Assembly (NCBI GenBank): GCA_005768725.1
Contig: VAFM01000002.1
Span: 276,486 to 340,485 of the forward strand
Source of the DNA: Blastochloris viridis
GTDB taxonomy: Bacteria; Pseudomonadota; Alphaproteobacteria; UBA2136; UBA6156
Direction: 5' to 3'
DNA length: 64,000 nucleotides
A program made the position numbers and the translations under genes. Shown here in pieces: positions 4,845 to 37,498 of the stretch (positions are counted from its first letter, which is position 1; the number at the start of each line of letters is the position of its first letter). The notes under the pieces are model-generated. The model saw nothing but the letters and a program-made list of their open reading frames with translations. It was not told the origin of the DNA and made no database searches.

Positions 4845-5035
4845 TGTTCTTTCCTACCACCAAACCAGCTGGAGCGGAATACGCATCATCATGCGTAAAC
4901 GAAAGGCCCCTCAGGGCCTACGTTAAGCTTTGGGGTTTGTTCCCCCGCCCCACAGTCTCTGCCAGAAGCTCACTTCGGCGGTGTCTCGGGGTCCTGCGGC
5001 GTCGTCCCCCGCAGATGGTGTTTCAACCGGTTCTT

Positions 5036-6202: not shown

Positions 6203-6508
6203 CCCGACTTCCCTCTCGTTATGGTGCACCGTGGGCCAGATCCAATTCCAATTTCCGGTGCGATTTGTTATCCGTCACTCTACGCGTGTAGCCTTTGTGT
6301 TCCAACCCCTCTGCCCGCAAAATCCGCACGCTTGCAGGCTTTTTCAAACCCCCTGCGTTGTTACCGCAACAACCTGCAAGCACACCTCAAACAGTATCTT
6401 TAACTCACTGAAAAACGGTACGACACGGAAACTCCCTTGCCAAAGAGCCATGTCCATCGCATATCTGGCCTCGATCCACCCCACGACCTTTTGAAAAGGA
6501 CAGTCTCC

Positions 6509-6955
6509 ATGCTGAAAACCGGTTTTTCACATCTCGCCGTCTCGTATTTTTCTCCCCTTCTCAAACTCTCCGCCCGAACACTTCGCTTTGGTATGGTCGC
6601 GCTCCTGATCGTGACAGGACTACTACTAGGAATCTTCGACTTCGACGATTCTCTGGCAGCAGCTTTCATCCTCATTGCCATCGGCGTGCTTCTCGCCATC
6701 AGCGGCTGGAAAAGCCTGTGCGACTTCTCATCCGAACCTCACGATGAAGCAAAGGAAAAGAACACGCTTTTTCATGAAATCTTCCTGATACTGGCGCTCG
6801 GTTGCTTCTTCGGCGGCTTTATCGCATTCGGCAGCGGAATTCTGGGTTTCTTGAACGGCATTAGCCGCAGCATCATCCTGATCCCGATCGGTTTCGTCAT
6901 CATGGCGGCAGGCACCGCCTTCGGCATTCTTAGCCACAATTGCGCGCCAGACTGA
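6509..6955 (+). CDS. Small integral membrane protein (about 148 aa, 4 predicted TM helices), hypothetical
   Basis: ORF between ftsA and ftsZ on the opposite strand; hydrophobic segments; AAAGGA RBS; local GC about 52%. Confidence 0.45.
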   Translation: MLKTGFSHLAVSYFSPLLKLSARTLRFGMVALLIVTGLLLGIFDFDDSLAAAFILIAIGVLLAISGWKSLCDFSSEPHDEAKEKNTLFHEIFLILALGCFFGGFIAFGSGILGFLNGISRSIILIPIGFVIMAAGTAFGILSHNCAPD

Positions 6956-8297: not shown

Positions 8298-9275
8298 TTA
8301 TCCTGCTACCGCCGGTTTCTGCGTCACCGGCGTGGTTCCCACGGTCTCCGGCAGGCGCAATACCACACGGTCGGGCAAACGCAAATCCACTTCACCCGCG
8401 TTCAGCGTCAGCACGTGGCGGGCTTCTTCCAGCTTGGCCAGCAGCGGCAAGGCCTGCTCAGCACCAAAGGTGCGGCTGTCTTCGGGCAGTTGCACCATCA
8501 CGCCACTTACAAAGCGCAGGTTCCAGCGGCGGTCACCCACCCACTCGGCTTCCCGCAGTTGGGTCAAAAGCTGCGGCCAGTTGGCAAGGTGCATAAACAG
8601 CGGGCCAGCCTGCGCCGCAGCACCATCACCCTTCAGCAATGGCAAACCGGCAAAGGCATTGCTGGCATCAGCCACAATGCGCTTACCGTCCTTGTTGATG
8701 ACCCATATCTGGCCATCCGCCACCAGACGCGCCAGCGGCACATGCTCGTAAATCGTCACGTTCACACGGTCCGGCAGCATGCGGTCCACGCTGGCCAAGC
8801 GCACCCACGGCAATTGCTCAATACGGGCACGGGCACTACCGGCATCAAACCCGACCAGGCTATCGCCTCGTTTAAGGCCCAAGGCACTCTGCAGATCTTC
8901 CCGACCCGTATAAACCGCGCCGCTCACCACAATTTTCTCAACAACCGCACCGGTCGCCTCAGCCACATACGCTGCGGTAAAATCACCGACAAACACACGG
9001 TTGGTCCACAATGCATACCCGCCAGCCATCACTGCCACAGCCATGGCACCTTGGCCGATCCGCTTCCACGGCCACGCGATTACACGCTGCTCGGTCTTGG
9101 CCAGCCAGCCACGGAAACCCTTCGGCTCTTCTACTTTTTTAGGGCGTGTACCGCCAAACAGGCTACCACCAAACTCATCCATCAACTCAACCGGAGGCAC
9201 GTCAGCAGGCTTACGCGGAACCATGGACACAACCTCCTCAAAACTGTTTTCAACTGCGGGTAAACCTGAAATCAA
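8298..9275 (-). CDS. ftsQ: Cell division protein FtsQ (TM + POTRA)
   Basis: Position upstream of ftsA; TM helix then POTRA-like region; TTG start (alternative Met at 9224). Confidence 0.78.
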   Translation of the reverse strand: MISGLPAVENSFEEVVSMVPRKPADVPPVELMDEFGGSLFGGTRPKKVEEPKGFRGWLAKTEQRVIAWPWKRIGQGAMAVAVMAGGYALWTNRVFVGDFTAAYVAEATGAVVEKIVVSGAVYTGREDLQSALGLKRGDSLVGFDAGSARARIEQLPWVRLASVDRMLPDRVNVTIYEHVPLARLVADGQIWVINKDGKRIVADASNAFAGLPLLKGDGAAAQAGPLFMHLANWPQLLTQLREAEWVGDRRWNLRFVSGVMVQLPEDSRTFGAEQALPLLAKLEEARHVLTLNAGEVDLRLPDRVVLRLPETVGTTPVTQKPAVAG

Positions 9276-9470
9276 TCAGAATGTGCATACCCTATCAGAA
9301 ACCCTACGCCGCAGCCACCCTTTTCGAACGCGCAAATCAATAACTTAGCCCACCGTCCTACATTCATCCAAGGGGGTGTGTCCGCCACACCCCACCGGCA
9401 CGCCCCAAGCGCTTGCCAACCTCGCATGTCGGGCTTACAAAGAGATATCTCTCACCGGAGGACGCCCTTC

Positions 9471-9737
9471 ATGAAAGAACTCCCCGTTTTCTCTGCATCC
9501 ACCCTTTTTCAGGGCAAAGTGGTCTATATCGACGCAAAAACCAGCGATGTCTGGATTGAGCTCACCACCTCATCCCTCAAAGGCGAGATGGTACCCTTTC
9601 CTGCAACACCCGTAACGGCCCCCTACCTGCCCATTCATTACCATCTCAACGATACGATCGAAGGCACACTCGAAAAGGTCGTCATCAAGAACGAAACCCG
9701 CCTCCGTTTCGCACGCATCGAGAGAATTCCTTCCTGA
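9471..9737 (+). CDS. Small hypothetical protein (88 aa)
   Basis: ORF with internal ATG (MKELPVF...); followed by a terminator; weak support. Confidence 0.3.
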   Translation: MKELPVFSASTLFQGKVVYIDAKTSDVWIELTTSSLKGEMVPFPATPVTAPYLPIHYHLNDTIEGTLEKVVIKNETRLRFARIERIPS

Positions 9738-9747
9738 ACGACAGATA

Positions 9748-9774
9748 AAGCCCGGCAAACAGCCGGGCTTTCTT
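9748..9774. terminator. Bidirectional terminator
   Basis: agcccggc-aaaca-gccgggct then tttctt. Confidence 0.55.
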
Positions 9775-9804
9775 CATATACGGAACGCATACAAACAATA
9801 CATT

Positions 9805-10437
9805 TCACTTACGCAACACAACACCGAACATCGCATCACCATACGTCGTGACACTCAGGTCCGGCATAGCCCGCTCAACCGTACCACCTAAAGCTTGCCA
9901 TGCCGCCGCAACTTCTTCGGCCCGATAAAAGACCATCACTCGTGGCAGATCCTTCCCCAGATTCCGCGAAACCTCCTCCCCCTCACCTTGTTTGGAGATC
10001 AGCACCGCAATGCCACCGATCACTAACCCGGTATGTATCTTCTTCACAAATGTCCGTAATTCCATACGCGGAACATGCACCAGCACCGCACACGCCCACA
10101 CCACATCGAACCCGTCCCCAAACGGCAAAGCTTCATCACTCCGCAAGTCATACTCGCTAAAATACGGTCCCACCTCACGTACAGCCTGCGCCAGTAAGGG
10201 CGGGCTCACATCACACCCATACGCGTCTGCTCCACGTCGCCGGAATTCGGCCACATCGCGCCCAAACCCGCAGCCGATGTCGAGCACCCGCCGCCCTTGC
10301 AGGTCTAGCGTCTCCAGCAAAGCGTAACACGAAGCATTACGGTTCTCGCTGTTCCGCATCTCCTTGGCCACAAACCCTGCCGCGCCGCGCTCATCGCGGT
10401 AACTGGCTACGGTCTGGTCAAAGATATCCCCCGCCAA
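9805..10437 (-). CDS. Class I SAM-dependent methyltransferase
   Basis: Motif I VLDIGCGFGRD and downstream acidic motif; occupies the slot where ddl normally lies. Confidence 0.7.
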   Translation of the reverse strand: MAGDIFDQTVASYRDERGAAGFVAKEMRNSENRNASCYALLETLDLQGRRVLDIGCGFGRDVAEFRRRGADAYGCDVSPPLLAQAVREVGPYFSEYDLRSDEALPFGDGFDVVWACAVLVHVPRMELRTFVKKIHTGLVIGGIAVLISKQGEGEEVSRNLGKDLPRVMVFYRAEEVAAAWQALGGTVERAMPDLSVTTYGDAMFGVVLRK

Positions 10438-10439
10438 CG

Positions 10440-11378
10440 CTATTCCACCCCGGTAAAGCGTACTTCCCGCTCCATCACAATCCCTAACCGCTCCAGCACC
10501 TGCGCTTCCACTTTCTGGCTCAATGCCTCAAAATCGGCCGCCGTTCCAGGCGTCCCTTCCTTGGCTCCGGCATTCACAAAAAAGTTAGCGTGCTGCTCAC
10601 TCACCTGCGCACCACCTACGCGCATACCACGGCATCCGGCTTCATCTACAATCCGCCAGGCGTTCACGCGCTCACCGTCGCGCACCACGTTCTTGAACCA
10701 ACTGCCCGAGCTCGGCATATGCAGCGGCTGCGTACTGCTGCGCGCGCGGTTGATCTCCTGCATCTGTTTGCGAATCTCTTCCTTATCGCCGGGCACCAGC
10801 TCCCATTCACCGGCCTTGTACAGCCATCCGGCAGGCAGTGCCGTGCCACGGTAACGCGGTGCCAGAAAATCCGGCGTCACTTCGCGTTCTGCGCCGTCGG
10901 CATCCAGCACCCACACACGCTTCAGCTTATCAAACGTCTCAAACCCGTAGGCCCCCGCATTCATGCGCAGCGCCCCACCGATAGCTCCGGGAATCCCCCC
11001 AAAGAACGCAATCCCTTCCAGCCCAGCCTCACGCGCGGCACGGGCGGCAGTCCCATTCGCAGCGCCCGCTTCGGCATATAATAAGGTACCGTCGACACGC
11101 ACGGCATCCAGCCCTTTGGCCAGATTCACCACCACACCGGCAATGCCACCATCACGGATCACCATATTGCTACCCTTGCCCATCGGCGTCAGCGCCACGG
11201 CATGGGCATTGCACCAGCGCACTAAAGCCGCCATCTGGTCCCAGTCGGTAACCTCAGCCATCACCTCGGCCGGGCCACCGACCTTGATCGTGGTATAATC
11301 CGCCAGCGGCACATTGCGCGTATAGCTAATACCTTCGGGCATATCCTCAAACCAAACCGGAGCAGGCCATTCCTTCAT
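10440..11378 (-). CDS. murB: UDP-N-acetylenolpyruvoylglucosamine reductase
   Basis: FAD-binding MurB-like sequence; start at internal MKEW Met. Confidence 0.88.
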   Translation of the reverse strand: MKEWPAPVWFEDMPEGISYTRNVPLADYTTIKVGGPAEVMAEVTDWDQMAALVRWCNAHAVALTPMGKGSNMVIRDGGIAGVVVNLAKGLDAVRVDGTLLYAEAGAANGTAARAAREAGLEGIAFFGGIPGAIGGALRMNAGAYGFETFDKLKRVWVLDADGAEREVTPDFLAPRYRGTALPAGWLYKAGEWELVPGDKEEIRKQMQEINRARSSTQPLHMPSSGSWFKNVVRDGERVNAWRIVDEAGCRGMRVGGAQVSEQHANFFVNAGAKEGTPGTAADFEALSQKVEAQVLERLGIVMEREVRFTGVE

Positions 11379-11389
11379 ATCGCACCGCC

Positions 11390-12841
11390 TTAATGATGGT
11401 GATGATGACCGTGATGACCATGGCCATGACCGCAATCATGCGCCGCCAGATGCTTGGCAAAATCGGTGATGGTCCCAGCACCCAGGCACACGATCACATC
11501 GCCCTTGCCCACATGCAGGTGGTGCAACACCTTCTGCAAACCGTGTTCATCAGCTACCACATGTACGTCTTCCGGCAGACCGGCTTCGTCCATTTTTTGG
11601 CCCAGAACTTCATGACTCACACCGGCGATCGGTTCTTCACCGGCACTATACACCGGCAGCAGCACGGCCACATCGGCCAGTTTGGCGCATCCGGCAAACT
11701 CGTCCATCAAGTCGCGCAAACGGGTGTAACGGTGCGGTTGAATCACCGCCACAATCTTGCCGTCATAAGCCTGCTTGGCCGCACCAAGGGTCGCCATAAT
11801 TTCAGTCGGGTGGTGGCCATAATCATCGATCACATCCGCGCCGTGCCATTCACCCACTTTCGTGAAGCGACGGCCTACACCTTCAAACCGCGCCAGCCCT
11901 TCTGCCGCCTTCACCACATCAGCCTTGGCAATGCTCGCCACTGCCAATGCCGCCAGGCTGTTCAGTACATAGTGTGCGCCCGGCAGCGCCACAACCACAT
12001 CTTCAATAATCCCACCACGCAGGCTCACATCAAACGCCATACCCATGCCGCCGTTGGGCAGGGTACCACCGGCGCGGGTCACGCTGTAGCTGTCGGTGTA
12101 CACATCGGCACCGTCTTCCATGCCGTAGGTAATCACATCCGTATCGGTCCGCGCTTCCACGATCATCGCATTGGTGTCATCACCGCAAATCACCGCCATC
12201 TCGGCACTGTTGGCAAAGTCCACAAAGGCCTGTACCAGCTTTTCCTCGGTACCGTAGGTGTCCATGTGCTCGGGCTCAATGTTGGTGATAACCGCCACGG
12301 TCGGCTTCAGTTTCAAAAAGCTCGCATCACTCTCATCGGCTTCCACCACCAGCCAGCCGCTGGTCTTCTTCGGCAGCAGCGCATTGGTGCCAAGCGCGTT
12401 CAGCACACCGCCATTGATAATCCCTGCATCCACATCCGCCGCCTTCAGTGCGGTGTACACCAGCGCAGTGGTGCTGGTTTTACCATGGGTACCGCTTACC
12501 GCTACGGTCTGGTAATTCTTCATAATTTCGGCCAGCACATCGGCACGGTGCACGGTCTGCAAACCCTGCTCTTTGGCCGCCACACGCTCCGGGTTATCAG
12601 CCGGGATCGCCGTGCTCAGCACCACGATCGCATCGCCCGGCACCTGCTCGGCCTTGTGCCCGCGGAACACCTTCACACCGGCTTTCTCCAGGCGCTCAAA
12701 ATCGCCTTTGCTGCCACCATCGCTACCAGAAACCGTGGCACCCTGCGTCGCCAGAACTTCGGCCAACCCGCTCATGCCAATACCGCCCACACCCACAAAG
12801 TGAATGCCTAAGCCTTTAACATCCTGTCCAAAAATTTTCAT
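11390..12841 (-). CDS. murC: UDP-N-acetylmuramate--L-alanine ligase with His-rich C-terminal tail (..HDCGHGHGHHGHHHHH)
   Basis: Mur ligase motifs (GTHGKTSTTAL); start at MKIFGQD with GGGAGAGAG RBS. Confidence 0.9.
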   Translation of the reverse strand: MKIFGQDVKGLGIHFVGVGGIGMSGLAEVLATQGATVSGSDGGSKGDFERLEKAGVKVFRGHKAEQVPGDAIVVLSTAIPADNPERVAAKEQGLQTVHRADVLAEIMKNYQTVAVSGTHGKTSTTALVYTALKAADVDAGIINGGVLNALGTNALLPKKTSGWLVVEADESDASFLKLKPTVAVITNIEPEHMDTYGTEEKLVQAFVDFANSAEMAVICGDDTNAMIVEARTDTDVITYGMEDGADVYTDSYSVTRAGGTLPNGGMGMAFDVSLRGGIIEDVVVALPGAHYVLNSLAALAVASIAKADVVKAAEGLARFEGVGRRFTKVGEWHGADVIDDYGHHPTEIMATLGAAKQAYDGKIVAVIQPHRYTRLRDLMDEFAGCAKLADVAVLLPVYSAGEEPIAGVSHEVLGQKMDEAGLPEDVHVVADEHGLQKVLHHLHVGKGDVIVCLGAGTITDFAKHLAAHDCGHGHGHHGHHHHH

Positions 12842-12873
12842 TCTACTCTCTCCCAAAAATAAACGTCTCAAAC

Positions 12874-13989
12874 CTAATTCTTAACGGCCTCGGCAACCAC
12901 CTGCGCCACCACACGGGTCGCATCGGGGCGGGCCAGCCCTAGCGCGGCTTTGGCCATGGCGTCAAGGCGTACCTTGTCCTGCATCAGCGCCCGCACGTGC
13001 ACCAGCAGGTTGGCCGGTGTAAAATACGGCTGCTCCACCACCACCGCAGCCCCTACCTTTTCAGCCACACTGGCGTTCAGCTTCTGGTGGCCATCCGCCA
13101 GTTCCAGCGGCACATAAATGGCAGGCACACCCATAGTGGCGCACTCCAGCACGGTACCCACCCCACTACGACCGATCACGATATCCGCCTCGGCATAGCG
13201 CTTCGGCATATCGGTAAAGAAGGTCTCTACCGTCACACCGCCCAGGCCCTGCTTGGCATAGGTGGCGGTTACACGTTCAAAGTCGTCGGCACGTACCTGC
13301 TGCACCACATGCAAACGGGCACGGTCGGCAGGCGGCAGCATTCCCACCATCTCCGGCACCACTTCGCTCAAAATGCGCGCGCCTTGGCTACCGCCCAGCA
13401 CCAGCAGGTTAAACACATCCGTGTCCTTGGCCTTCTTCGCACGCGCCGCCTCTAAAATCTCTTCACGCAGCGGGGTACCAGCCACCACAACTCGACCTTT
13501 CACACTGGGTAGATAAGCAAGGCTCTCCTCAAACGTCAGCACCACCACATCCGCAAAACGCGAAAGAAAACGGTTGGCCCGCCCCGGCAATACGTTCTGC
13601 TCATGAATGATGGTCGGCACGCCGCGCAGTTTGGCCGCCAGCATCAGCGCCACGGTGGCATACCCGCCGGTCCCGAACACCGCCACCGGCTTCTCGCGTA
13701 CCACAAGTTTCAGAGCCTTGAAGAACCCGCGCGCCAGCTTCCCGAACGCCCACAAAATCCCCAGCGGCCCGCGGTCATTAAATGCCGCGGCAGGCAAACG
13801 CACATACGGCAGACCGGTACGCTCCACCACATCCAGAAACTTGTTGCCGCCCAGAATAACTTTCACCGCAAATGCCGGACGTGTCCCCTCGGCCTCACAC
13901 AGCGCCTGCGCCACCGAAAGCGCGGGGAACAGGTGTCCCCCACTTGCACCGCTGGCTACAAGAATGGTTCGTTTTTCAGTCGTAGGCAT
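12874..13989 (-). CDS. murG: UDP-N-acetylglucosamine--N-acetylmuramyl-(pentapeptide) pyrophosphoryl-undecaprenol GlcNAc transferase
   Basis: GT28 family sequence (GGHLFPAL, GGSQGA); start at MPTTEK Met just after the ftsW stop. Confidence 0.9.
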   Translation of the reverse strand: MPTTEKRTILVASGASGGHLFPALSVAQALCEAEGTRPAFAVKVILGGNKFLDVVERTGLPYVRLPAAAFNDRGPLGILWAFGKLARGFFKALKLVVREKPVAVFGTGGYATVALMLAAKLRGVPTIIHEQNVLPGRANRFLSRFADVVVLTFEESLAYLPSVKGRVVVAGTPLREEILEAARAKKAKDTDVFNLLVLGGSQGARILSEVVPEMVGMLPPADRARLHVVQQVRADDFERVTATYAKQGLGGVTVETFFTDMPKRYAEADIVIGRSGVGTVLECATMGVPAIYVPLELADGHQKLNASVAEKVGAAVVVEQPYFTPANLLVHVRALMQDKVRLDAMAKAALGLARPDATRVVAQVVAEAVKN

Positions 13990-13993
13990 AAAA

Positions 13994-15106
13994 TTAAATC
14001 CGTTTTCCTTGTTTACGCAGCAATGCCAGCAAAAAGCCAAGCACCAGTGCCATCGCGAAGGTAGAGCTACCACCGTAACTGATGAACGGCAAGGTCATGC
14101 CGGTGGTCGGCACCAAGTGCAGCGCCACGCCAATATTCACACAGACGTGGATTGAGATCAGCGTCAGCAAGCCACCCACGCCCAGCAGCACAAAGCGGTC
14201 TTCCTGCGCCAGCACCCGAGAGAACCCGCGCAACACGAGGGTCAAAAACAGCCCCATCAGCAGTAGCCCGACCACGATACCGAACTCCTCGGCCACCACG
14301 GCAAAGATAAAGTCAGTATGCGCGTCCGGTAGTTGGTGCTTCACCACCCCTTCCCCGGCGCCACGGCCCCACAGGTGCCCCATCATAATAGCCTCATTGG
14401 CCTGGTCTACCTGATAGGTATCCGAATGCTCGGGGTTAATAAAACGCTCCAGACGGTCACGCACGTGCGGCAGCATGGTATAGGCCCCCACCACCACACA
14501 CAAACCCCCGGCCACCACAGGCGCCAGCCACAGCAGCGGCAATCCGGCCATGAAGACCTGCAGGAACCACACCAACCCCATCGCCAAGGCCATCCCGAAG
14601 TTCGGCTGCATCAGCACCGGCAGGCCTACCGCGCCCATCATCACGATACTCGCAAAATAGCCCTGCAACTGCTTGCGCTTGTCATGGCTCGCCAGCAGTG
14701 CCGCGGTCACTAAAATCAACGCCGGTTTCATGAACTCGGTCGGCTGAATACTCTGCCCGGCAATATCGATCCAGCGCCGCGCCCCCTTCACCTCGGTCCC
14801 GATCACAAACGTCAGCAAAATCCCCACAAACGCCCCAATGAACAGTAAAAAGCCCGCGCGCTTTACCCCTTCCGGCTTCAGCGTGGTCATGCCCAGCATC
14901 ACACCGAGAGCTAAGAGCAGGAACAGATAATGACGTACCGCAAAGTGGTACGGCCCCACATTATAGCTCTTGGCCACCGCCACACTCGCAGTGGTCACCG
15001 CCACCGCGCCGCATAGCATGATGACCACGATAACGGCCACCGCCACGCGGTCCATTTCCCACCACCAGCGTACCAGCGGGTGTCGGCTCTGACGATAAAT
15101 GCTCAT
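13994..15106 (-). CDS. ftsW: Lipid II flippase / peptidoglycan polymerase FtsW
   Basis: SEDS family polytopic membrane protein, 370 aa, position between murD and murG. Confidence 0.9.
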   Translation of the reverse strand: MSIYRQSRHPLVRWWWEMDRVAVAVIVVIMLCGAVAVTTASVAVAKSYNVGPYHFAVRHYLFLLLALGVMLGMTTLKPEGVKRAGFLLFIGAFVGILLTFVIGTEVKGARRWIDIAGQSIQPTEFMKPALILVTAALLASHDKRKQLQGYFASIVMMGAVGLPVLMQPNFGMALAMGLVWFLQVFMAGLPLLWLAPVVAGGLCVVVGAYTMLPHVRDRLERFINPEHSDTYQVDQANEAIMMGHLWGRGAGEGVVKHQLPDAHTDFIFAVVAEEFGIVVGLLLMGLFLTLVLRGFSRVLAQEDRFVLLGVGGLLTLISIHVCVNIGVALHLVPTTGMTLPFISYGGSSTFAMALVLGFLLALLRKQGKRI

Positions 15107-16482
15107 CGGCCCGTAACCCTCCGTTCAACCTGTTCAACGGTAACCAATCCCTGCACTAAATTGACGAACGTATCGCCACGGTGCTCAAAGTTCCGGTATT
15201 GGTCCATGCTGGCAGCAGAGGGGCTCAACAGCACAACCGCATCTTCCAGCCCTTCACTGCGCGCCGCCGCAAACGCCTCGCGCACGGCCACATCCATCGT
15301 ATGGCATTTAAAGCTCGGCACATTATGCTGGACCAACGTATCGGCAAAATCCTCGGTCGCCTGCCCGATCGTAAACGCCGCGCGCACCGCACCCAGATGG
15401 TTGATGCACGCACCAAGTCCATCGGTCTTCGGCAAGCCACCGCAGATCCAGTAAATATTCGCAAAACTCTGCAACGCATATACGGTGCTGTCACCATTGG
15501 TGGCCTTGCTGTCATTCACAAACAGAACGTCACCGACCTTCCCGACCTTTTCCAGACGGTGCGGCAAGCCCTTAAAGCTCTTGCAGGCATCCCTGAATTC
15601 CGCCGGCGTACACCACCGCGGCACCAGCAGCGCGTAGGCACAGGCCACGTTCTGGGCATTGTGCGGGCCGGGCAGATGCTCCAGATCCTCCAACGGCATC
15701 AGCGTGTCCAGCCCATGGGTCAACTTGCCTTCGGTCACCATGTAGTCGCCCACTCCAGTCACGCTCACTGTAGTCACGCCACGCGTTTCGGCCTGGCCCC
15801 GCAGCAACGGCTGGTCAATCCCCATCACCTGTACGGCTCCGGCCTTGGCCAAGTCAAATAGACGCAGTTTCGCGGCCAGATAAGCCTCCATCGTGCCGTG
15901 CCGCGCTAGGTGGTCCGGCGTCAGGTTCAGCAGCAGCGCACCATCCACCTGCAGGTCCGTCAGGGTTTCCAGTTGGTAGCTCGAAAGCTCCAGCACATAG
16001 ACACCGTTTTTCGGCAATTCCGGCAAGGCCAGCGCGGGCGTACCAATGTTCCCGCCTACCGCAACCTTGTATCCGCACACGCGCAAAATATGCCCGATAA
16101 GCGCGGTGGTCGTACTCTTGCCATTGGTGCCGGTGATGCCGATGAACGCCGCACCATTGCTGTTATCGCGACGGTACAGCAGATCCACATCGGTCATCAC
16201 CGGCACCTTGTGCGCCAGCGCGGCCCGCACCAGCGGCGTTTCCAGAGAGATCCCCGGGCTCTTTACCAGCGCACCGATGCGCGTCCAGTCCACTGCATCC
16301 GGCGCACGGACACTGAACAGGTTAGCGTCAGGGCTGGAGTTGAAATCGTCATTGTCATCCCACACAAACACTTCCACACCGGCATCCTGCAAGGCCAGCG
16401 CGGTGGCGCGGCCACTGCTGCCAAGCCCGTACACCATCACTGCCTTGTGGCCAAATCCGTAAACGTCACGCCGCATGGTCAT
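15103..16482 (-). CDS. murD: UDP-N-acetylmuramoylalanine--D-glutamate ligase
   Basis: Mur ligase (GTNGKSTTTAL); overlaps ftsW start by 4 nt. Confidence 0.9.
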   Translation of the reverse strand: MTMRRDVYGFGHKAVMVYGLGSSGRATALALQDAGVEVFVWDDNDDFNSSPDANLFSVRAPDAVDWTRIGALVKSPGISLETPLVRAALAHKVPVMTDVDLLYRRDNSNGAAFIGITGTNGKSTTTALIGHILRVCGYKVAVGGNIGTPALALPELPKNGVYVLELSSYQLETLTDLQVDGALLLNLTPDHLARHGTMEAYLAAKLRLFDLAKAGAVQVMGIDQPLLRGQAETRGVTTVSVTGVGDYMVTEGKLTHGLDTLMPLEDLEHLPGPHNAQNVACAYALLVPRWCTPAEFRDACKSFKGLPHRLEKVGKVGDVLFVNDSKATNGDSTVYALQSFANIYWICGGLPKTDGLGACINHLGAVRAAFTIGQATEDFADTLVQHNVPSFKCHTMDVAVREAFAAARSEGLEDAVVLLSPSAASMDQYRNFEHRGDTFVNLVQGLVTVEQVERRVTGR

Positions 16483-16489
16483 TCTCCTC

Positions 16490-17572
16490 CTAGCGCAGCT
16501 TCAGGGTGGCTAAACCGATCAGCGCCAGAATCACGCTGCAGATCCAGAAGCGGATGACGATCGTGCTTTCCGGCCAGCCCAACTGCTCAAAGTGGTGGTG
16601 CAGCGGCGCCATACGGAAGATACGCTTGCGGGTCAGCTTATACCCGGCCACCTGAATCATCACGCTCAACGTCTCAACCACAAACAGACCACCGATGATC
16701 AGCAGCGCAAATTCTTGCTTGATCATCACCGCCACACCACCCAGAAACGCCCCAACCGGCAGGCTGCCGCTGTCGCCTAAAAAGATGCGTGCCGGCGGCG
16801 CGTTGTACCACAAAAAGCCCAGTGTCGCGCCGGCCAGCGCGGCGCACATAATGGAGATCTCACCGCTGCCGGCAATATGCGGCAGGTGCAAATAGGCGGT
16901 ATAGTCCACACGGCCCATCACGTAGGCTAAAATCGCCATGGTCGTCGCCACCAGCACCACCGGAATACTCACCAGCCCGTCCAGACCATCGGTCAGGTTC
17001 ACGGCATTGGCGGTGCCGACCATTACCAGCACCCCGAACATCACAAAACCCCAGATGCCGATGCCGACCACCAACTCCTTGATGAACGGGAAATAGATCT
17101 CGGTCGAAACGGCGGTACCGTTCACGTACACATAGCCCAGCAAAAACACGGTACTGATGAATGTCCCCAGCGCCAGCCGCAGCTTGCCCGGCAAACCCTT
17201 CTTCCACCGGCGGGTCAGGTTCAGATAGTCATCCATAAACCCGATGGCACCATACCCGACCAGCAGGAACAGCAGCAGCCATACATAACCATTGGCCAGA
17301 TTCGCCCACAGCAGGGTCGCCAGCGTCATGGCCCCCACAACGCCAATACCGCCCATGCTGGGGGTACCGGCCTTGCCCTGATGAGGCAGAATCGCCTTCA
17401 CGGTATCGCCACCCTTCTGCCACAGGCGGAAGGCGGTGATAAGCCGGGTACCGAACACCAGCCACAGCAAAAATGCCGTAAACATGGCCGCACCGGCGCG
17501 TACAGTTAAGTACTGGAACACATTGAACCAGTTCACATAATCCACAAAGGGAAGCAACAAGGCAGGAATCAT
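16490..17572 (-). CDS. mraY: Phospho-N-acetylmuramoyl-pentapeptide transferase
   Basis: MraY-like 360-aa polytopic membrane protein. Confidence 0.92.
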   Translation of the reverse strand: MIPALLLPFVDYVNWFNVFQYLTVRAGAAMFTAFLLWLVFGTRLITAFRLWQKGGDTVKAILPHQGKAGTPSMGGIGVVGAMTLATLLWANLANGYVWLLLFLLVGYGAIGFMDDYLNLTRRWKKGLPGKLRLALGTFISTVFLLGYVYVNGTAVSTEIYFPFIKELVVGIGIWGFVMFGVLVMVGTANAVNLTDGLDGLVSIPVVLVATTMAILAYVMGRVDYTAYLHLPHIAGSGEISIMCAALAGATLGFLWYNAPPARIFLGDSGSLPVGAFLGGVAVMIKQEFALLIIGGLFVVETLSVMIQVAGYKLTRKRIFRMAPLHHHFEQLGWPESTIVIRFWICSVILALIGLATLKLR

Positions 17573-17723
17573 GCCGCAGTATCCCCCTTTTTAACCCGAA
17601 ACACCAGAGCCTGAGCCACGCCACCGCTGCAAAATCCGGCAGCACCTTCGCCCTTGCAAAAGCCCCTGCCCCGCCCCACACTCGTAGTCGAATAAAACGG
17701 CATCAACAAGAAAGGAGTATGCC

Positions 17724-18065
17724 ATGAAACACATCGTCCCGGCCTTGGCCGCTCTCGCTTTTCTGCTGACGCCGCTCGCGGCCTCCGCCGATACCCTCTC
17801 CGCCTGCAAAGCCAACTACCCCAAGGCCAAATCAATCACCCCCGTCCTTTCGGTCACCGAAGTCGGGAACGATTATTTTGTGACCGCCAACGGCAAACGC
17901 TTCAAGGCCCGCTTCGAGGAAGACAACTACGCCAGTTTCCTCACCGCCATCGGCGGCGGCAAAGTAACCCTCTACGCCGACACCCAAGGCAATCTCTACG
18001 GCCCGAACATCGCCGGAAACGATTCCCTGCTGACGGCCGAAGAACGCGCCTGCATCCGCTTCTGA
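17724..18065 (+). CDS. Small secreted protein (113 aa), hypothetical
   Basis: Signal peptide ..LTPLAASA; AAGAAAGGAG RBS; strong terminator downstream. Confidence 0.55.
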   Translation: MKHIVPALAALAFLLTPLAASADTLSACKANYPKAKSITPVLSVTEVGNDYFVTANGKRFKARFEEDNYASFLTAIGGGKVTLYADTQGNLYGPNIAGNDSLLTAEERACIRF

Positions 18066-18080
18066 CCACCCACATCTCCA

Positions 18081-18112
18081 AGCCTCCCGCCCCGTGCGGG
18101 AGGCTTTTTTTG
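18081..18112 (+). terminator. Rho-independent terminator
   Basis: agcctcccgc-cccgt-gcgggaggct then T7. Confidence 0.7.
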
Positions 18113-18266
18113 TGCCCTAACCCTCTGCCGTTCCGGTTAACCCATTGTGGGAACACGGCAGGCATGCTAGCGTTTCCCTAACAAATATAAAAAGACGCAT
18201 CTTTCTCTTACGTTGTAATGCGGCACCCACCTTATCGACTCTCAGCGACTACAGAAAGGTTAGGCC

Positions 18267-18914
18267 ATGCTGAAATCTATGCGCATATTCGCCTGCTCGT
18301 GTGCTGTTCTGGTAGGGCTGGCGCCGCTCGCGGCCTCCGCCGGGCAGGTTCTGGTAACACCGGATAACTTCCCCAAGGAATGCAGCGACGACATCTTCGA
18401 CAATACCGCCTACAGTGGCCCGGTCTCGGTCTACACCGTCCGCAACCTGCGGCAGGACAAGAACGACCCGTACCAGATCCAGTTCCAGATCAGCGACAGC
18501 AAGACCATCGTCTTCAAGACCGCCTTCCTGCGGGATCTTGACGACGAAACCATCCAGCAGGTCGACGGCTACCTCAAGAAGAAGAAAGGCCTGTTCGTGG
18601 CCTTCATCCAGCCGGGCACCGCGCATCTGGGCCCTGAAGGCGCACTTCCGGTAAGCAGTCCCGAGTCCAGGCTCGACTTCTTCCTGATAGCCTCGATCAG
18701 CATGGGCAACGGCAACCCGCCGATGTGCAGCTACCTGAGCCAGCCCGCCGGCTTGCCGCAGGAAGCTTACCAACACATGCCGGAGCGCATCCAACTGCTG
18801 ATGAACTGGGTGAAGGACGCCATGACGAAAGACATGGCCAACGCCTTCGCCGCCTTCACTACGAAGCAGCAGAACACCCCAGACCTCGTCGCCGACGACG
18901 ACGTCTTCAAGTAA
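18267..18914 (+). CDS. Secreted protein (215 aa), hypothetical
   Basis: Signal peptide ..LAPLAASA (same signal-peptide end as the 17724 gene); AGAAAGG RBS. Confidence 0.55.
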   Translation: MLKSMRIFACSCAVLVGLAPLAASAGQVLVTPDNFPKECSDDIFDNTAYSGPVSVYTVRNLRQDKNDPYQIQFQISDSKTIVFKTAFLRDLDDETIQQVDGYLKKKKGLFVAFIQPGTAHLGPEGALPVSSPESRLDFFLIASISMGNGNPPMCSYLSQPAGLPQEAYQHMPERIQLLMNWVKDAMTKDMANAFAAFTTKQQNTPDLVADDDVFK

Positions 18915-18952
18915 GTCTCCGCCAGCACGTTCCTGCTGGCCCCAACAAAAAA

Positions 18953-18978
18953 AGTCCCCGCCAAACGGGGACTTTTTC
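18953..18978 (+). terminator. Rho-independent terminator
   Basis: agtccccg-ccaaa-cggggact then ttttcc. Confidence 0.6.
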
Positions 18979-18991
18979 CATAGATAAAGGC

Positions 18992-20437
18992 CTAACCGCC
19001 CAGCACCTCACGGGCCACCAATCGGTCATCGAATGGATGCACCTCATCGCCCACGATCTGCCCGCTCTCATGCCCCTTCCCGGCGATCAGCACCACATCG
19101 TCCGGCCCGCCATCGGCAATCGCCGCCGCAATCGCGGCCTTGCGGTCATCAAATTCCAGTCCCTTGGCGCCGCCCGCGGTCACACCGGCCAATACCTGCT
19201 GCCGGATGTCCGCTGCATTCTCCTTGCGCGGGTTATCATCGGTCACATACACCACATCGGCCAGCTCGGCGGCAATGCGGCCCATAATCGGGCGCTTGGT
19301 CGCATCACGGTTCCCGCCACAGCCAAATACCACACGCAGTTTACCGCCACCTTTCACTACCGGACGCAGGCTCTCCAAAGCGCGCTGCAACGCATCCGGC
19401 TTGTGGGCATAGTCGACCACCACGCTTGGCTGGGTTGGCGCACTCTTCACCACTTCCATCCGTCCCGGCACAGCGGTCATGCGGCTCACGGCACCCGAGA
19501 TTTTTTTCCAATCATGACCGCTTCCCACCAGCAGGCCCAGCGCTACCGCCAGATTTTCGGCCTGGAACGTCCCGATCAGCGGCACATGCACCGGCACCGG
19601 TACACTATCATATTTCAAATTCAGTTGCAGGCCACGGCCGTTAGCTTCCACCACTTCCGCCACCAGTTCAGCGTTAGCGGTGCCCACGGTCAGCACCCGG
19701 CAGCCGCGCTGCTTGGCCACACTCGCGGCAGGCAGGGTTTCCATACGCCCGATGTTCAACACCGCCGTGCCATCTTCCGGCAGAACCTCGGCAAACAGGC
19801 GTAATTTAGCCGCATGGTACTCGGCCAGATCACCATGGAAATCGAGGTGATCCTGCGTAATATTCGTCAATCCCGCCGCAGTGAACTTGACCGCATCCAC
19901 ACGGTTCAGTACCAGCGCATGGCTGCTCACTTCCAGTAGGCAGGTCTGCACCTTCTCGCGTGCCAGTGTCTGCAAAATCGGCCCTATTTTCAGCGCGTTA
20001 GGGCTTGTAAAACCGGTATATTCAGTCTCTACATCCTCATCCTTGCGCATCACGCCCAGCGTTCCTACGCTGGCGGCATTCACCCCGCTCAACTGGGCCA
20101 GCTGACGCCCGAACCACACCACGCTGGTCTTGCCGCTGGTACCGGTTACACCCAGCATAACGGGCGGTTGTTCCGGCCAGCGCAGCGCCGCAAAGCGCGA
20201 AAGCACCTCCCCCGCATTCGTCACCTGCACCGCACCGTCCACCGGCACATCGGTCACAATGGCAGTTGCTCCTTTGGCCTTGGCGTCGGCCACCAGTGCC
20301 GCCACATCCTGCTTGGGCGCCACACGGCTGTCCCATACAAACACATCACCCGCCGCCAGCTTGCGCGTGTCATCACACACGTTCTGTACCGCAAAATCCG
20401 CCGCCACCGGCTGCCCTACAATCTCTGAAAATTTCAT
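18992..20437 (-). CDS. murE: UDP-N-acetylmuramoyl-L-alanyl-D-glutamate--2,6-diaminopimelate ligase
   Basis: Mur ligase (GVTGTSGKTS), 481 aa; DAP-type specificity assumed from Gram-negative context. Confidence 0.9.
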   Translation of the reverse strand: MKFSEIVGQPVAADFAVQNVCDDTRKLAAGDVFVWDSRVAPKQDVAALVADAKAKGATAIVTDVPVDGAVQVTNAGEVLSRFAALRWPEQPPVMLGVTGTSGKTSVVWFGRQLAQLSGVNAASVGTLGVMRKDEDVETEYTGFTSPNALKIGPILQTLAREKVQTCLLEVSSHALVLNRVDAVKFTAAGLTNITQDHLDFHGDLAEYHAAKLRLFAEVLPEDGTAVLNIGRMETLPAASVAKQRGCRVLTVGTANAELVAEVVEANGRGLQLNLKYDSVPVPVHVPLIGTFQAENLAVALGLLVGSGHDWKKISGAVSRMTAVPGRMEVVKSAPTQPSVVVDYAHKPDALQRALESLRPVVKGGGKLRVVFGCGGNRDATKRPIMGRIAAELADVVYVTDDNPRKENAADIRQQVLAGVTAGGAKGLEFDDRKAAIAAAIADGGPDDVVLIAGKGHESGQIVGDEVHPFDDRLVAREVLGG

Positions 20438-20601: not shown

Positions 20602-22461
20602 TTAATCAACCACTTCACCCGTTGCATCAGGTCGTAATTTCACGCCCCCCGCACTACCGCGCTTGGTTCTAAAATCGCTCAACACATACGTCTGCCACGG
20701 GTCATTGTACTTGCGCTTGGTACGGTCCAGCAGCGCACGGTAGGCGGTTACTTCATCCATGTCCGGCTTTAGCGCGGCAAGTTGGGTCAGGTCACGGTAA
20801 AAGTCTCCCACCACCGGTGCCGCGCTCTTACCACCGGTCTCATAGCCCTTCTTCGGCTCGTCTAGCATCACCAGCGTAATATATTCCGGGTTCTTCATCG
20901 GCAACACACCCACGTAACTCACGCGGTTCTTGTCCTTGGCATAACCACGGCCAACAATCTTTTCCGCCGTCCCGGTCTTGCCGCCAATATCATAACCTAC
21001 CACCTGGCTGCTACGCCCACTGCCATTCAGCACCACGTCACGCATCAGCACATGGATCTGCTCCAGTGTGGCGTCATCGATCAACCGGCGCGGCTGCGTC
21101 GTGCTCACACCGCCCAGCAACACGCTGGGGTGCTTTACGTAGCCGTCGGCAAGTGTGGCCACGGCATTCACAAGGTGCACCGGCGTCACACTCATCCCGT
21201 GACCAAACGAAATGGTAAAGGTCTGAATGCGTCCCCAGTTGTTCGGGTAACGCACATTCCCCACTTCGGGGATACCCGTCTGGATCGGCTCAAGCATGCC
21301 GAGCTTGGTCATGAATTCCTTCTGCGCGGCAGGGCCGCTCATGTCAGCGATCTTCGCCGCCCCGATGTTGGACGAATAACGCAGCACTTCATTGGCGGTC
21401 AGAATCGCCTTCTTGGCGTGGAAGTCCTTAATCGTGTAACGCCCGATGGAGATCGGCGTCCGCGCATCGATCAGCGTATCCGGCGTGATCTTCTTCTCCA
21501 CCAAACCTTGCGCCAGCGTAAAGAGCTTGAAGGTGCTCCCCATTTCGTAGCTGCCCAGCGTTACGTGGTTGAACATCTCGGCGGGCGTGGCCTTGCCTAG
21601 GTGGTTCGGGTCGTAATCGGGCAGACTGACCAGCGCCACGATCTCACGGGTCGGCGCCTTCATCACCAGTGCCCACGCGGCTTTGCTCTCGCTCTTGTCC
21701 TTCATTTCGATCAGACGCCGACGCAGCATTTCCTGCAACCGCACATCAAGCCCGAGGTGAATATCCTCACCCGCCGCCAACTGCGTGTTAAAGCCGCGTT
21801 CCACACCGGCCAAGCCGGTATTGTCCACGTCCACCGCACCCAGCACGTGGCTGGCCAGGTTCTTGTGCGGATACACCCGCACGAACTCTTCCCGGAATTC
21901 CAAGCCCGGCAACCCGAGCGCATTCACTTTCTGCGCCTCATCCGGCGTCAGGCGGCGCTTGATCCAGATAAACCGGCGGCTCGGGTCTTCAAGCTGCGCT
22001 TTCAGGCGCGCCATGTCCAAGCCCGGCAGCGCCTGCGGCAGGCGGCGTATCACGTCCTGGGGGTCCAGAATACGCTTGGGGTCGGCGTACAGGCTGTACA
22101 CCTTCAACGTAGCCGCCAGCAGCACGTTATTGCGGTCGTAAATATTCCCGCGGCGCAGCGTCTCCTTGGGCATCTCCCGGATGCTCGGACGCGGCTCGGC
22201 CGGCGGCATAAGACCCACATAGGCCAATTTTGCCCCCACACCGGCAAACGCCAGCGTCAGCACACCCATCACAATCATCGCACGGAAGTGCGCGGCAACC
22301 CCGCTCTCCACGATCTCGGCCCGGGTGGGCATAAAGCCACGCGCCGCGTGGGTCTTCACCCGCCGCTGCTGTACGGTGCTACGCTTCGGGGTAAATACGG
22401 GCGTGTTGTCACGTCCGCGCCCGATGCGCGCACTTTCCCAAGGCTTCTTGAATTGGCTCAT
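20602..22461 (-). CDS. ftsI: Peptidoglycan D,D-transpeptidase FtsI (PBP3)
   Basis: STFK, SSN and KTG motifs; N-terminal TM; 619 aa. Confidence 0.9.
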   Translation of the reverse strand: MSQFKKPWESARIGRGRDNTPVFTPKRSTVQQRRVKTHAARGFMPTRAEIVESGVAAHFRAMIVMGVLTLAFAGVGAKLAYVGLMPPAEPRPSIREMPKETLRRGNIYDRNNVLLAATLKVYSLYADPKRILDPQDVIRRLPQALPGLDMARLKAQLEDPSRRFIWIKRRLTPDEAQKVNALGLPGLEFREEFVRVYPHKNLASHVLGAVDVDNTGLAGVERGFNTQLAAGEDIHLGLDVRLQEMLRRRLIEMKDKSESKAAWALVMKAPTREIVALVSLPDYDPNHLGKATPAEMFNHVTLGSYEMGSTFKLFTLAQGLVEKKITPDTLIDARTPISIGRYTIKDFHAKKAILTANEVLRYSSNIGAAKIADMSGPAAQKEFMTKLGMLEPIQTGIPEVGNVRYPNNWGRIQTFTISFGHGMSVTPVHLVNAVATLADGYVKHPSVLLGGVSTTQPRRLIDDATLEQIHVLMRDVVLNGSGRSSQVVGYDIGGKTGTAEKIVGRGYAKDKNRVSYVGVLPMKNPEYITLVMLDEPKKGYETGGKSAAPVVGDFYRDLTQLAALKPDMDEVTAYRALLDRTKRKYNDPWQTYVLSDFRTKRGSAGGVKLRPDATGEVVD

Positions 22462-22523: not shown

Positions 22524-23009
22524 TTATTCGGCAGCGGCGGCAGGCACAAGGGTTTCCGAAACCTCCTCAACCGCCTCGCTCGGCAAAGCCGCTTCCGGCG
22601 GCACGGTGGTGGTGGATGACGTCCCTTCAGCCACCATCGCGGGCCCCGTCTCCTCCACCTCACTGTTACTGACAAACCCGGCAGCCAGTACCGCTGCCAC
22701 AGCGCTACCCGAAACCACGCGCGGTGCCGCCGGCACCGTGCCGCTCACCGGCTCCATCGGCGCAATAATATCCAGCGCAGTGGCAGGCACATACCCCATG
22801 GTCTGAACCACACGCTCCATGCGGCTGGGGCTGGCCAACAAGGCCCATTCCGCTTCCAGCACCCGCTTGGTCTCGCGCAGCTCGGCACGCTCGCGCACCA
22901 GTTGCATACGCTGGCGGTCCATGGTCTGGACGTCGGTCTTGATACGCATCATGCCGGCAAACGCCGCCACACTCAGCAATACCGCCAGCAACACCAGACT
23001 ATTTCTCAT
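22524..23009 (-). CDS. ftsL: Cell division protein FtsL-like (TM anchor + coiled coil, Ala/Glu/Val-rich tail)
   Basis: Position immediately upstream of ftsI; N-terminal TM then REAELRETKRVLEAEW coiled coil. Confidence 0.6.
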   Translation of the reverse strand: MRNSLVLLAVLLSVAAFAGMMRIKTDVQTMDRQRMQLVRERAELRETKRVLEAEWALLASPSRMERVVQTMGYVPATALDIIAPMEPVSGTVPAAPRVVSGSAVAAVLAAGFVSNSEVEETGPAMVAEGTSSTTTVPPEAALPSEAVEEVSETLVPAAAAE

Positions 23010-23035
23010 ACCCCCAACCTAACAGCGCCTCAGCT

Positions 23036-23072
23036 GCAAAACAAGACCGGCCCCTTCAGGCCGGTCTGTTTG
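23036..23072. terminator. Bidirectional terminator between ftsL start region and the 23092 gene
   Basis: aaaacaag-agaccggcccc-ttca-ggccggtct-gttt. Confidence 0.55.
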
Positions 23073-23091
23073 GCGGGCAGCCGTGTGACTT

Positions 23092-23727
23092 CTAGTGTCC
23101 GCTGCCCTGGGCCTCGGCACCTGCCGGAGGCGTTTCATCGGCCGGAGTCGCCGGTTGGATCTCAGCGGTCGGGGTCGCTGGCTTTTCATCAATGGCCGGT
23201 TCCTTTACAGGAGCCGTTTCTGCCGGAGCGGTTTCCGCAGGCAGAGCTTCCTCGGTGGCAGCCTCTTCCTTCACAACCACCTTCTTGGCAGCCTTCTTCA
23301 CAGCCGGTTTGGCAACAGGGGTCGGCACACGTTTGCCGTTCTCATCCCAACGGTCAGCAAACTTGGCTTCGCCTTTACCCACAACAAACAAGCCGCTGGT
23401 CGGGTCAAAGGTAAAGCGGTCATATCCCTTTTCACGGGCATATTCCTGCCAGCTCTTGTCAGCCGTGTCCGGGAACTGGGTGGTGGTGCCGTCTTCCAGC
23501 TTCACGGTCGCCATGTGGCCCGGGTCAACGGTCGGGGCGCTGCCAACAGCCGTGGTTTCCACGGTAGTGTAGGTGGTCGTGGTGGTGGTCGGCACGTCCG
23601 AGTACGGGTTGGCCGGTACTTCGTGGGTCACGGTCGTGGTGTTTTCTACCTGCTCAACCATCACTTGGGCGTTAGCTTGGGTAGCTACCAGAGCAGCGGC
23701 CGCAGCAACATACAACATCTTGTTCAT
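23092..23727 (-). CDS. Secreted protein with poly-Thr tract and Lys/Ala/Pro/Glu-rich (histone H1-like) C-terminus
   Basis: Signal peptide MNKMLYVAAAAALVATQANA; AGGAGAAAA RBS at internal Met. Confidence 0.55.
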   Translation of the reverse strand: MNKMLYVAAAAALVATQANAQVMVEQVENTTTVTHEVPANPYSDVPTTTTTTYTTVETTAVGSAPTVDPGHMATVKLEDGTTTQFPDTADKSWQEYAREKGYDRFTFDPTSGLFVVGKGEAKFADRWDENGKRVPTPVAKPAVKKAAKKVVVKEEAATEEALPAETAPAETAPVKEPAIDEKPATPTAEIQPATPADETPPAGAEAQGSGH

Positions 23728-23932
23728 TTTAGGTTTTTCTCCTGTGTTGGATACCTTCATCATAAAGGCTCATCGGCAGTATAATGCACAATCACGCGGT
23801 TTGTTCAGCGTTTGGGTACGCTGCGTGCGCTTTTTTCCCAAGGGGGTGTGCCCATGGGGTTTTCCAATCATCCCGGAACCTTTGCCACGCTGTCCCGTCT
23901 CTCTCTTGATTAAGAAAACGACCAAGAAAGGT

Positions 23933-24508
23933 ATGACCATGACAACACTATCCGAAGCCCGCATCCTTATCCTCGCCACCGACGGCTTTGAACAATCCGA
24001 ACTGGAAACCCCGCTGAACGAACTCCGCGCCGCAGGTGCCACAGTGCACGTCTGTGCACCCTCCCAAACCAAGGAAGAAGGCGTCATTCGCGGCTGGAAA
24101 GACGGCGACTGGGGTACCACTGTTCCGGTTGATGTGATTCTGGAATCCAGCACCGACTGGCCCTACCACGCTCTAGTGCTGCCGGGCGGTGTGATCAACC
24201 CAGACACCCTGCGCACCAACCCCAATGCCGTGAAGCTGGTGCAGGCATTCGTCAACGAAGGCAAACCGGTCGCCGCCATCTGCCACGGCCCATGGCTGCT
24301 GGCCGAAGCCGATGTGGTGAACGGCCGTAAGGTCACCTCCTACACCTCCATTAAAACCGACATGATCAATGCCGGTGCCGACTGGCAGGATGCCGAGGTG
24401 GTGACCGACAACGGACTCATTACCTCGCGTAAGCCGTCCGACCTTCCCGCCTTCGTCGCCAAGATCCTCGAGGAAGTGCAGGAAGGCCAGCACCGCCGCG
24501 CCGCATAG
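23933..24508 (+). CDS. DJ-1/PfpI family protein (class I glutamine amidotransferase-like)
   Basis: AICHGP nucleophile-elbow motif, 191 aa from MTMTT start with AAGAAAGG RBS. Confidence 0.8.
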   Translation: MTMTTLSEARILILATDGFEQSELETPLNELRAAGATVHVCAPSQTKEEGVIRGWKDGDWGTTVPVDVILESSTDWPYHALVLPGGVINPDTLRTNPNAVKLVQAFVNEGKPVAAICHGPWLLAEADVVNGRKVTSYTSIKTDMINAGADWQDAEVVTDNGLITSRKPSDLPAFVAKILEEVQEGQHRRAA

Positions 24509-37494: not shown

Positions 37495-37498
37495 GCAC

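Follow-up and report, generated by a model that had tools for sequence, protein, structure and literature searches.

In its canonical proteobacterial form, the division and cell wall (dcw) cluster reads mraZ-rsmH-ftsL-ftsI-murE-murF-mraY-murD-ftsW-murG-murC-murB-ddl-ftsQ-ftsA-ftsZ. The dcw cluster is among the most stable gene clusters of bacteria, and its order is maintained in rod-shaped Gram-negative species, a conservation not seen in species that are Gram-positive or not rod-shaped (PMC8871954; PMC10214165). The locus considered here is the murE/mraY junction of the dcw cluster in a 64,000-nucleotide stretch (hereafter the window) of an alphaproteobacterial metagenome-assembled genome (MAG) deposited under the evidently nominal label Blastochloris viridis (GenBank assembly GCA_005768725.1, contig VAFM01000002.1, positions 276,486 to 340,485 of the forward strand). 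At this junction murF is absent, and the interval between murE and mraY (17573-18991, 1,419 bases, hereafter the slot) carries instead two plus-strand open reading frames (ORFs). The locus is best described as the product of an old event common to a clade, in which the dcw cluster was split at the murE/mraY junction and eroded, and the best explanation, which we consider probable, is an operon fission in which murF and ddl now reside elsewhere in the genome.

Three types of described arrangement can be compared with this locus. In Bacillus subtilis and Staphylococcus aureus, murE is followed directly by mraY within the dcw cluster and ddl-murF forms a separate operon. The window resembles this Bacillus-type arrangement in that mraY follows murE without murF and in that murF and ddl, both belonging to the D-Ala-D-Ala branch, lie outside the cluster. 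It differs from it in its Gram-negative host and in the 1.4 kb of opposite-strand genes plus a terminator that separate murE from mraY, two genes that are probably not co-transcribed here. Lineage-specific erosion of the dcw cluster has also been described: the cluster is split in Streptococcaceae, and in the FBC superphylum it no longer includes murB and ddlB (PMC8136486; PMC8871954). The present case is similar in showing gene loss and splitting at the level of a clade, with the two halves physically apart in two relatives (L094 and L097), but it concerns another phylum and another breakpoint, which is filled here by secreted orphan proteins of a variable family. Finally, MurE-MurF fusions and a proposed Mur ligase complex have led to the argument that murE and murF are adjacent because co-assembly of their products is selected for (PMC10214165). 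With respect to these fusions, the window shows the same junction at the opposite extreme, since murE and murF are uncoupled in this clade.

Gene identities in the window were assigned by NCBIfam and Pfam profile matches. The slot is bounded on one side by murE (18992-20437, minus strand), which encodes a UDP-MurNAc-L-Ala-D-Glu:meso-DAP ligase of 481 aa (NCBIfam NF001124, 480.5 bits, above the cut-off) and is the last gene of the ftsL-ftsI-murE block, and on the other by mraY (16490-17572, minus strand, 360 aa; TIGR00445, 367 bits), the first gene of the mraY-murD-ftsW-murG-murC-murB block. An initial inspection of the letters alone (the sequence-only reading) had placed two plus-strand genes for signal-peptide proteins of 113 and 215 aa in the slot, and these are found at 17724-18065 (ORF1) and 18267-18914 (ORF2). 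Their description as divergently oriented was mistaken, since both lie in tandem on the plus strand, facing away from mraY and towards murE. The absence of murF from the slot, on the other hand, was correctly noted, as was the absence of any Mur-ligase motif: phmmer, tblastn with MurF and hmmsearch with a MurF hidden Markov model (HMM) detected no Mur ligase or remnant of one in any frame. A murF gene in another frame, or a decayed relic of one, was thereby rejected (six-frame slot), and the best MurF tblastn matches of this search fall within the 3' end of murE.

The degree to which this arrangement is unusual was assessed with an outgroup survey, in which one genome per GTDB species was scanned with MraY and 80 loci were kept. 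murF stands directly before mraY in all of the outgroup alphaproteobacterial loci with enough upstream DNA (77/77), and ddl is located at most 10 kb downstream in 55 outgroup loci. A series of relatives was then obtained by MurE search and arranged by identity to the window MurE, after which the gene contexts were inspected. At 52% identity (L095) the cluster is fully canonical, as it is in L096, a relative found through MurF and therefore standing outside the MurE series; at 57% (L098) the order murE-murF-mraY...murB-ddl-ftsQ is kept, with a 72-aa opposite-strand ORF before mraY. At 60% (L097) and 65% (L094) the cluster stops right after murE and unrelated genes follow. The remaining four relatives share the layout murE, opposite-strand ORFs, mraY, without murF: L093 (80%) and L009 (94%), with no ddl in 21 kb, and L003 (95%) and L006 (about 92-94%, an estimate from the phmmer score of a partial gene), where ddl is outside the reach of a short contig. 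murF is kept at 52% and 57% MurE identity and gone at 60% and above, and its departure from the junction therefore dates to the clade's ancestor. The rearrangement is thus unusual for Alphaproteobacteria, although not unprecedented. The possibility that the arrangement is simply ancestral and ordinary in its clade is partly borne out: the event is old and shared by the clade, but it is still not ordinary for Alphaproteobacteria. The sequence-only reading could not have revealed this age and sharing, the departure of ddl and of mraZ and rsmH from the same cluster, and the differences in slot content among close relatives.

These comparisons also bear on a quite different account of the slot, namely a recent insertion (a mobile element or an islet gained by horizontal transfer) by which murF was displaced in this single genome, or else an artefact of assembly. 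The orphan character of the two genes, their opposite strand and their own terminators would suit such an insertion, and so would the divergence of the slot. Synonymous divergence (dS) between the window and L003 (4932-6113) is 0.30 for ORF1 and 0.21 for ORF2 compared with 0.63 for murE and 0.62 for mraY, that is, two- to three-fold lower in the slot than in its flanks, which suggests that recombination may have exchanged the slot after the flanks had diverged. However, the slot has the same G+C content (0.56-0.61) as its flanks, and no integrase, insertion sequence (IS) element, tRNA-like or flanking-repeat signature was found in it. The murE-mraY layout is moreover identical in independent ENA and Logan contigs and in the 626 kb contig of the NCBI MAG, and the same layout is seen in diverged relatives; its recurrence in independent assemblies therefore shows that it is not an assembly artefact. 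Together with a loss of murF common to the clade down to 60% MurE identity, these observations already largely refute a recent insertion, which we regard as barely credible.

Regarding the missing genes themselves, the search was extended from the slot to the whole window and beyond. Among the six-frame ORFs of the 64 kb, phmmer with MurC, MurD and MurE and an HMM of 60 MurF sequences returned murC, murD and murE only, so that no fourth Mur ligase is present within the window. An HMM built from 57 outgroup Ddl sequences likewise gave no match in the window, and the usual site of ddl, between murB and ftsQ, is a gap (9276-10437) occupied by a gene for an S-adenosylmethionine (SAM)-dependent methyltransferase (9805-10437, minus strand) and an 88-aa ORF (9471-9737, plus strand). 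The same methyltransferase is found in L093, where murB is also gone from the cluster. Neither murF nor ddl was found in the flanks, about 5 kb past the left end of the window and about 9 kb past the right end, of which one contains mscL and phaC and the other flagellar and chemotaxis genes.

Searches for a murF of the clade elsewhere, as the sequence-only reading had proposed, did not locate one. A search with the MurF of L095 returned at least 120 matches; among those listed, identity was at most 45% and none was attributable to the clade, and the matches that could be tied to a MurE contig all belong to relatives of 52% or less in which the cluster is canonical. The MurF of L098, used to scan metagenomes, yielded one candidate, a stand-alone murF in L099 (10001-11401) located directly downstream of secY...rpoA-rplQ, with genes for a SurA-like protein and an M23 peptidase behind it. 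This candidate was rejected as not assignable to the clade, because its MurF is equally near to Bradyrhizobium-type MurFs and to that of L098 and because no other gene of L099 is common with the clade loci. L098 is the nearest relative that still has murF, and its MurF (4996-6402) can itself be described as Bradyrhizobium-type, with 52-54% identity to Bradyrhizobium MurFs and about 36% to the MurF of L096; the murF of L099 is of the same type. This hints that murF may have been replaced in the lineage before it was lost from the slot.

A more radical interpretation of these negatives is that the clade truly lacks MurF and Ddl and builds its wall without canonical D-Ala-D-Ala addition, by means of a non-homologous enzyme or of salvaged peptides. 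Both genes are gone from the cluster, from the 64 kb and from about 10 kb of flanks, both are equally absent from the 21-kb loci of L009, L093, L094 and L097, and no clade MurF came out of the L095-MurF search or the L098-MurF metagenome scan. Nevertheless, MurC, MurD, MurE, MraY, MurG, FtsW and FtsI are all present and strongly constrained (murE and mraY were the genes tested), and the transpeptidase motifs of FtsI can be read intact in the translation: STFK (SxxK), SSN (SxN) and KTG. DD-transpeptidation requires a D-Ala-D-Ala donor, and an FtsI with intact motifs would therefore need the D-Ala-D-Ala pentapeptide, and hence MurF and Ddl. The absence, in addition, is that seen in the loci and the window, and murF and ddl can simply sit elsewhere in a genome, as they do in Bacillus-type genomes. 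On these grounds a true loss appears very improbable, and the same small chance is all that we would grant to its stronger form, in which a free-living, flagellated clade makes peptidoglycan without canonical MurF and Ddl, the D-Ala-D-Ala branch is replaced or bypassed and the slot proteins are part of an altered wall biology. Conversely, given MurC, MurD, MurE, MraY, MurG, FtsW, a motif-intact FtsI and constrained murE and mraY, it is a priori very probable that MurF and Ddl exist elsewhere in the genome.

If the operon has been split, its two parts should be transcribed separately, and predicted signals of transcription at both ends of the slot are consistent with this. Two sites display the GC-rich hairpin with an immediate U-tract that is expected of intrinsic terminators, 18080-18106 on the plus strand and 18949-18977 on both strands, in line with the strong terminator that had been read after each ORF. 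The first, behind ORF1, came out of a terminator scan and is predicted to be unidirectional; it comprises an 11-bp GC-rich stem followed by TTTTTTTG and folds with -25 kcal/mol (z = -6.7), and its minus-strand version has no U-tract. The second, situated between the convergent ORF2 and murE, is predicted to be bidirectional. It has the structure AAAAAGTCCCCG-CCAAA-CGGGGACTTTTT, on the minus strand followed by TTTTTTTGTT, with a 12-bp stem between an A-run and a T-run (an inverted repeat of 12 nt, 100% complementary) and fold energies of -30.5 kcal/mol on the plus strand (z = -5.8) and -36.7 kcal/mol on the minus strand (z = -4.9). L003, L006, L009 and L093 all retain a hairpin at this place behind murE, in which both arms of the stem have changed.

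At the other end of the slot, mraY and ORF1 are separated by a divergent intergenic region of 151 nt (17573-17723). The stretch of about 75 nt that precedes the mraY ATG is conserved between the window, L003, L006, L009 and, in part, L093, and the alignments show the conserved motifs GGATTTTG, CTGGTGTT and GGGATACT; this leader is conserved despite differing neighbouring slot genes. Within the region, a palindromic TTGCAA (17654-17659) could serve as a -35 element in both directions, with GATTTT (17636-17631, minus strand) as a candidate -10 element for mraY, although this promoter candidate is sub-threshold. An RNA element in the leader or the slot was also considered and rejected, as Rfam returned sub-threshold terminator look-alikes only and no conserved fold was found. 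The convergent terminator and the conserved leader together support mraY-murD-...-murB as a probable separate transcription unit.

The proteins encoded in the slot are orphans. ORF1 begins with a predicted Sec-type signal peptide, MKHIVPALAALAFLLTPLAASA, with cleavage before DT, and its mature part has a Cys near each end; ORF2, annotated at NCBI as hypothetical protein DI628_07090, begins with a predicted Sec-type signal peptide, MLKSMRIFACSCAVLVGLAPLAASA, with cleavage before GQ. A signal peptide of the Sec/SPase I kind is expected to combine a positively charged n-region, a hydrophobic h-region and an A-x-A cleavage motif, and the sequences read MKH...LLTPLAASA before D in ORF1 and MLKSMR...LAPLAASA before G in ORF2; both proteins are probably exported, presumably to the periplasm. 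The two signal peptides had been said to share an identical end (LAPLAASA), which is true of seven of the eight residues (LTPLAASA in ORF1, LAPLAASA in ORF2), and the likeness extends to the DNA: the signal-peptide coding regions contain a direct repeat of 26 nt, with copies at 17765-17790 in ORF1 and 18317-18342 in ORF2 (both on the plus strand) that are identical at 25 of 26 positions. The exact 21-mer core of this repeat occurs at these two sites only, against 0 expected in shuffles. ORF1 and ORF2 can be aligned over the ribosome-binding site, the signal peptide and the first 12 or so mature codons, in the window as well as in L006, a likeness of the start regions that fits a putative partial duplication or gene conversion.

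Neither ORF1 nor ORF2 matches a Pfam, NCBIfam or PHROGs family, and a profile of the ORF2 family has no match among PDB sequences. The AlphaFold2 (AF2) model of ORF1, with a predicted local distance difference test (pLDDT) score of 61, gave no PDB fold match at E < 0.1 (best E = 0.12), and the structure model of ORF2 (pLDDT 34.5) is unusable. Homologues of ORF1 were found only beside ORF2, in L003, L006 and L008. ORF2 has matches in only 4 clusters among 5.8e9 proteins, and a full HMMER search of 1.84e9 representatives gave 6 matches, including four secreted proteins 338-350 aa long. By these alignments, ORF2 corresponds to the N-terminal domain of a clade-restricted two-domain family of predicted secreted proteins of about 345 aa. 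A further slot gene, called gene A (148 aa, the sole slot gene of L009), and the extra copy in L006 match the C-terminal domain of this family (hmmsearch E = 5.9e-13 and 4.9e-5; tblastn E = 7.6e-7). In each domain a Cys is found close to the start and another close to the end, and the N- and C-terminal domains show a collinear weak alignment (hhalign E = 0.014) that is suggestive only. A single paralogous family of ORF1, ORF2 and gene A was considered and rejected, since hhalign of ORF1 against the others was not significant and the alignment of ORF1 with ORF2 and gene A is limited to the signal peptide and the first residues. The content of the slot is variable among the relatives: ORF1 and a short ORF2 in the window, L003 and L008; gene A, ORF1 and a long ORF2 in L006; gene A only in L009; and unrelated secreted ORFs of 97 and 346 aa in L093, the latter without detectable relation to the two-domain family.

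The ratio of nonsynonymous to synonymous divergence (dN/dS) relative to the relatives is 0.19-0.31 for ORF1 and 0.38-0.40 for ORF2, compared with 0.04 for murE and 0.02-0.05 for mraY. Values of 0.19-0.40 therefore indicate that the slot ORFs are real genes, which evolve under purifying but relaxed selection. Such selection raises the question of whether the slot proteins could act in the periplasm as partners or regulators of the synthesis or turnover of the cell wall (by inhibiting lytic enzymes, for instance, or as divisome adaptors), retained beside mraY and murE so as to be co-regulated through a shared divergent promoter region. Every clade member with murE near mraY possesses secreted-type slot ORFs, even where these are unrelated (97 and 346 aa in L093), and ORF1 shares with mraY the 151-nt divergent region and its palindromic TTGCAA. 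On the other side, the slot proteins show no similarity to known families, including those with lysozyme-inhibitor and peptidoglycan-binding domains, and dN/dS values of up to 0.65, gain, loss and truncation among near relatives and the absence of slot genes from L094 and L097 agree better with dispensable accessory genes. Fast evolution, variable copy number and restriction to the clade are more in keeping with accessory proteins of the envelope than with core partners in making the wall, and a role as partners seems to us unlikely, if less so than the other alternatives discussed above.

The old fission of the operon is consequently the explanation that we retain as probable, and the following sequence of events may be proposed. 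murF would have left the site between murE and mraY in the common ancestor of an uncultured clade of Alphaproteobacteria (MurE identity of 60% or more), and ddl would also have left its site between murB and ftsQ. The emptied murE/mraY junction could then have turned into a true intergenic slot, with the upstream block ftsL-ftsI-murE presumably ending at the conserved bidirectional intrinsic terminator and the downstream block mraY-murD-ftsW-murG-murC-murB starting from its own putative promoter in the conserved 75-90 nt or so upstream of mraY. On the opposite strand, the slot would have been filled by clade-restricted, fast-evolving and secreted (probably periplasmic) orphans, ORF1 and ORF2, and the number and architecture of the slot genes would have shifted among close relatives through duplication, truncation and loss. 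After the split, the two halves of the cluster would have been free to part, as the position of mraY away from murE in L094 and L097 suggests. Another part of the genome presumably carries murF and ddl, perhaps side by side as they are in Bacillus.

Some points weigh against this scheme. murF and ddl were found for no member of the clade in the 21-kb loci and the MurF searches, the terminators and signal peptides are predictions, and a promoter scan gave no consensus sigma-70 promoter in 17573-17723. The earlier deduction of a separate promoter for the mraY block gains strength, short of proof, from the conserved hairpin after murE and from the conserved leader. With models as poor as those of ORF1 and ORF2 (pLDDT 61 and 34.5), a functional link of these proteins to cell-wall synthesis may also exist.

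Beyond the junction, most of the cluster in the window follows the canonical plan. ftsI-murE, mraY-murD-ftsW-murG-murC(-murB) and ftsQ-ftsA-ftsZ are collinear and on the same strand according to the profile matches and coordinates: ftsL (22524-23009) and ftsI (20602-22461) precede murE, mraY is followed by murD (15103-16482), ftsW (13994-15106), murG (12874-14073), murC (11390-12871) and murB (10440-11435), and ftsQ (8298-9275), ftsA (7012-8262) and ftsZ (5036-6229) come before lpxC (3987-4844). As in the canonical cluster, then, ftsL-ftsI-murE, mraY-murD-ftsW-murG-murC-murB and ftsQ-ftsA-ftsZ keep their order and strand, with lpxC next; unlike it, the cluster of the window has no murF, ddl or mraZ-rsmH, presents opposite-strand ORFs at three sites (17724-18914, 9471-9737 and 6509-6955) and has a terminator after murE. 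The third of these sites, between ftsZ and ftsA, holds an ORF for a small multi-pass membrane protein (6437-6955, with the ORF at 6509-6955, plus strand; called as 148 aa) with a weak TauE-like match.

mraZ and rsmH are not found upstream of ftsL (23010-24508 of the window), where a secreted Pro/Thr-rich ORF of 223 aa is located (23092-23763, minus strand) and, beyond it, a divergent PfpI/DJ-1 gene on the other strand. mraZ-rsmH is still upstream in the relatives L093, L094 and L095, and the pair disappeared from the cluster at a later point, inside the genus-level group. In L009, too, an ORF homologous to that of 223 aa stands upstream of ftsL.

Other features of the cluster proteins were observed in the same comparisons. 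The Mur ligase N-terminal domain PF01225 has no precomputed Pfam match in the MurE proteins P0005-P0077 of the wider clade (identity of at least 45%), and it is present in every listed more distant MurE that spans the N-terminus; it is missing in relatives with and without a murF in the slot, and this trait is therefore unlinked to the loss of murF. MurC ends in a natural histidine tail, HGHGHHGHHHHH in the window (3' end of murC, 11390-11450), HHHHHH in L009 (16100-16144) and HHHH in L093 (19330-19375), that is not found in L095, L096 or L098, nor in L028, the sole other outgroup with a full-length murC. Elsewhere in the window, a bacterial class A RNase P RNA is encoded at 37496-38018 on the plus strand (Rfam RF00010, 166.6 bits); the match covers 523 nt compared with the 367 positions of the model, which implies sizeable insertions.

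As a Gram-negative clade in which murF (and ddl) are uncoupled from the cluster, these organisms provide a natural counter-example to the argument that adjacency reflects selection for co-assembly (PMC10214165). The cluster here appears to be cut into separately terminated and promoted blocks, which are physically apart in some members. The clade could be used to address two questions: how does the adjacency of genes relate to the stoichiometry of the Mur enzymes, and how does the integrity of the cluster relate to cell shape? It also defines a small new family of putative secreted two-domain proteins, whose only known address is the breakpoint between murE and mraY.

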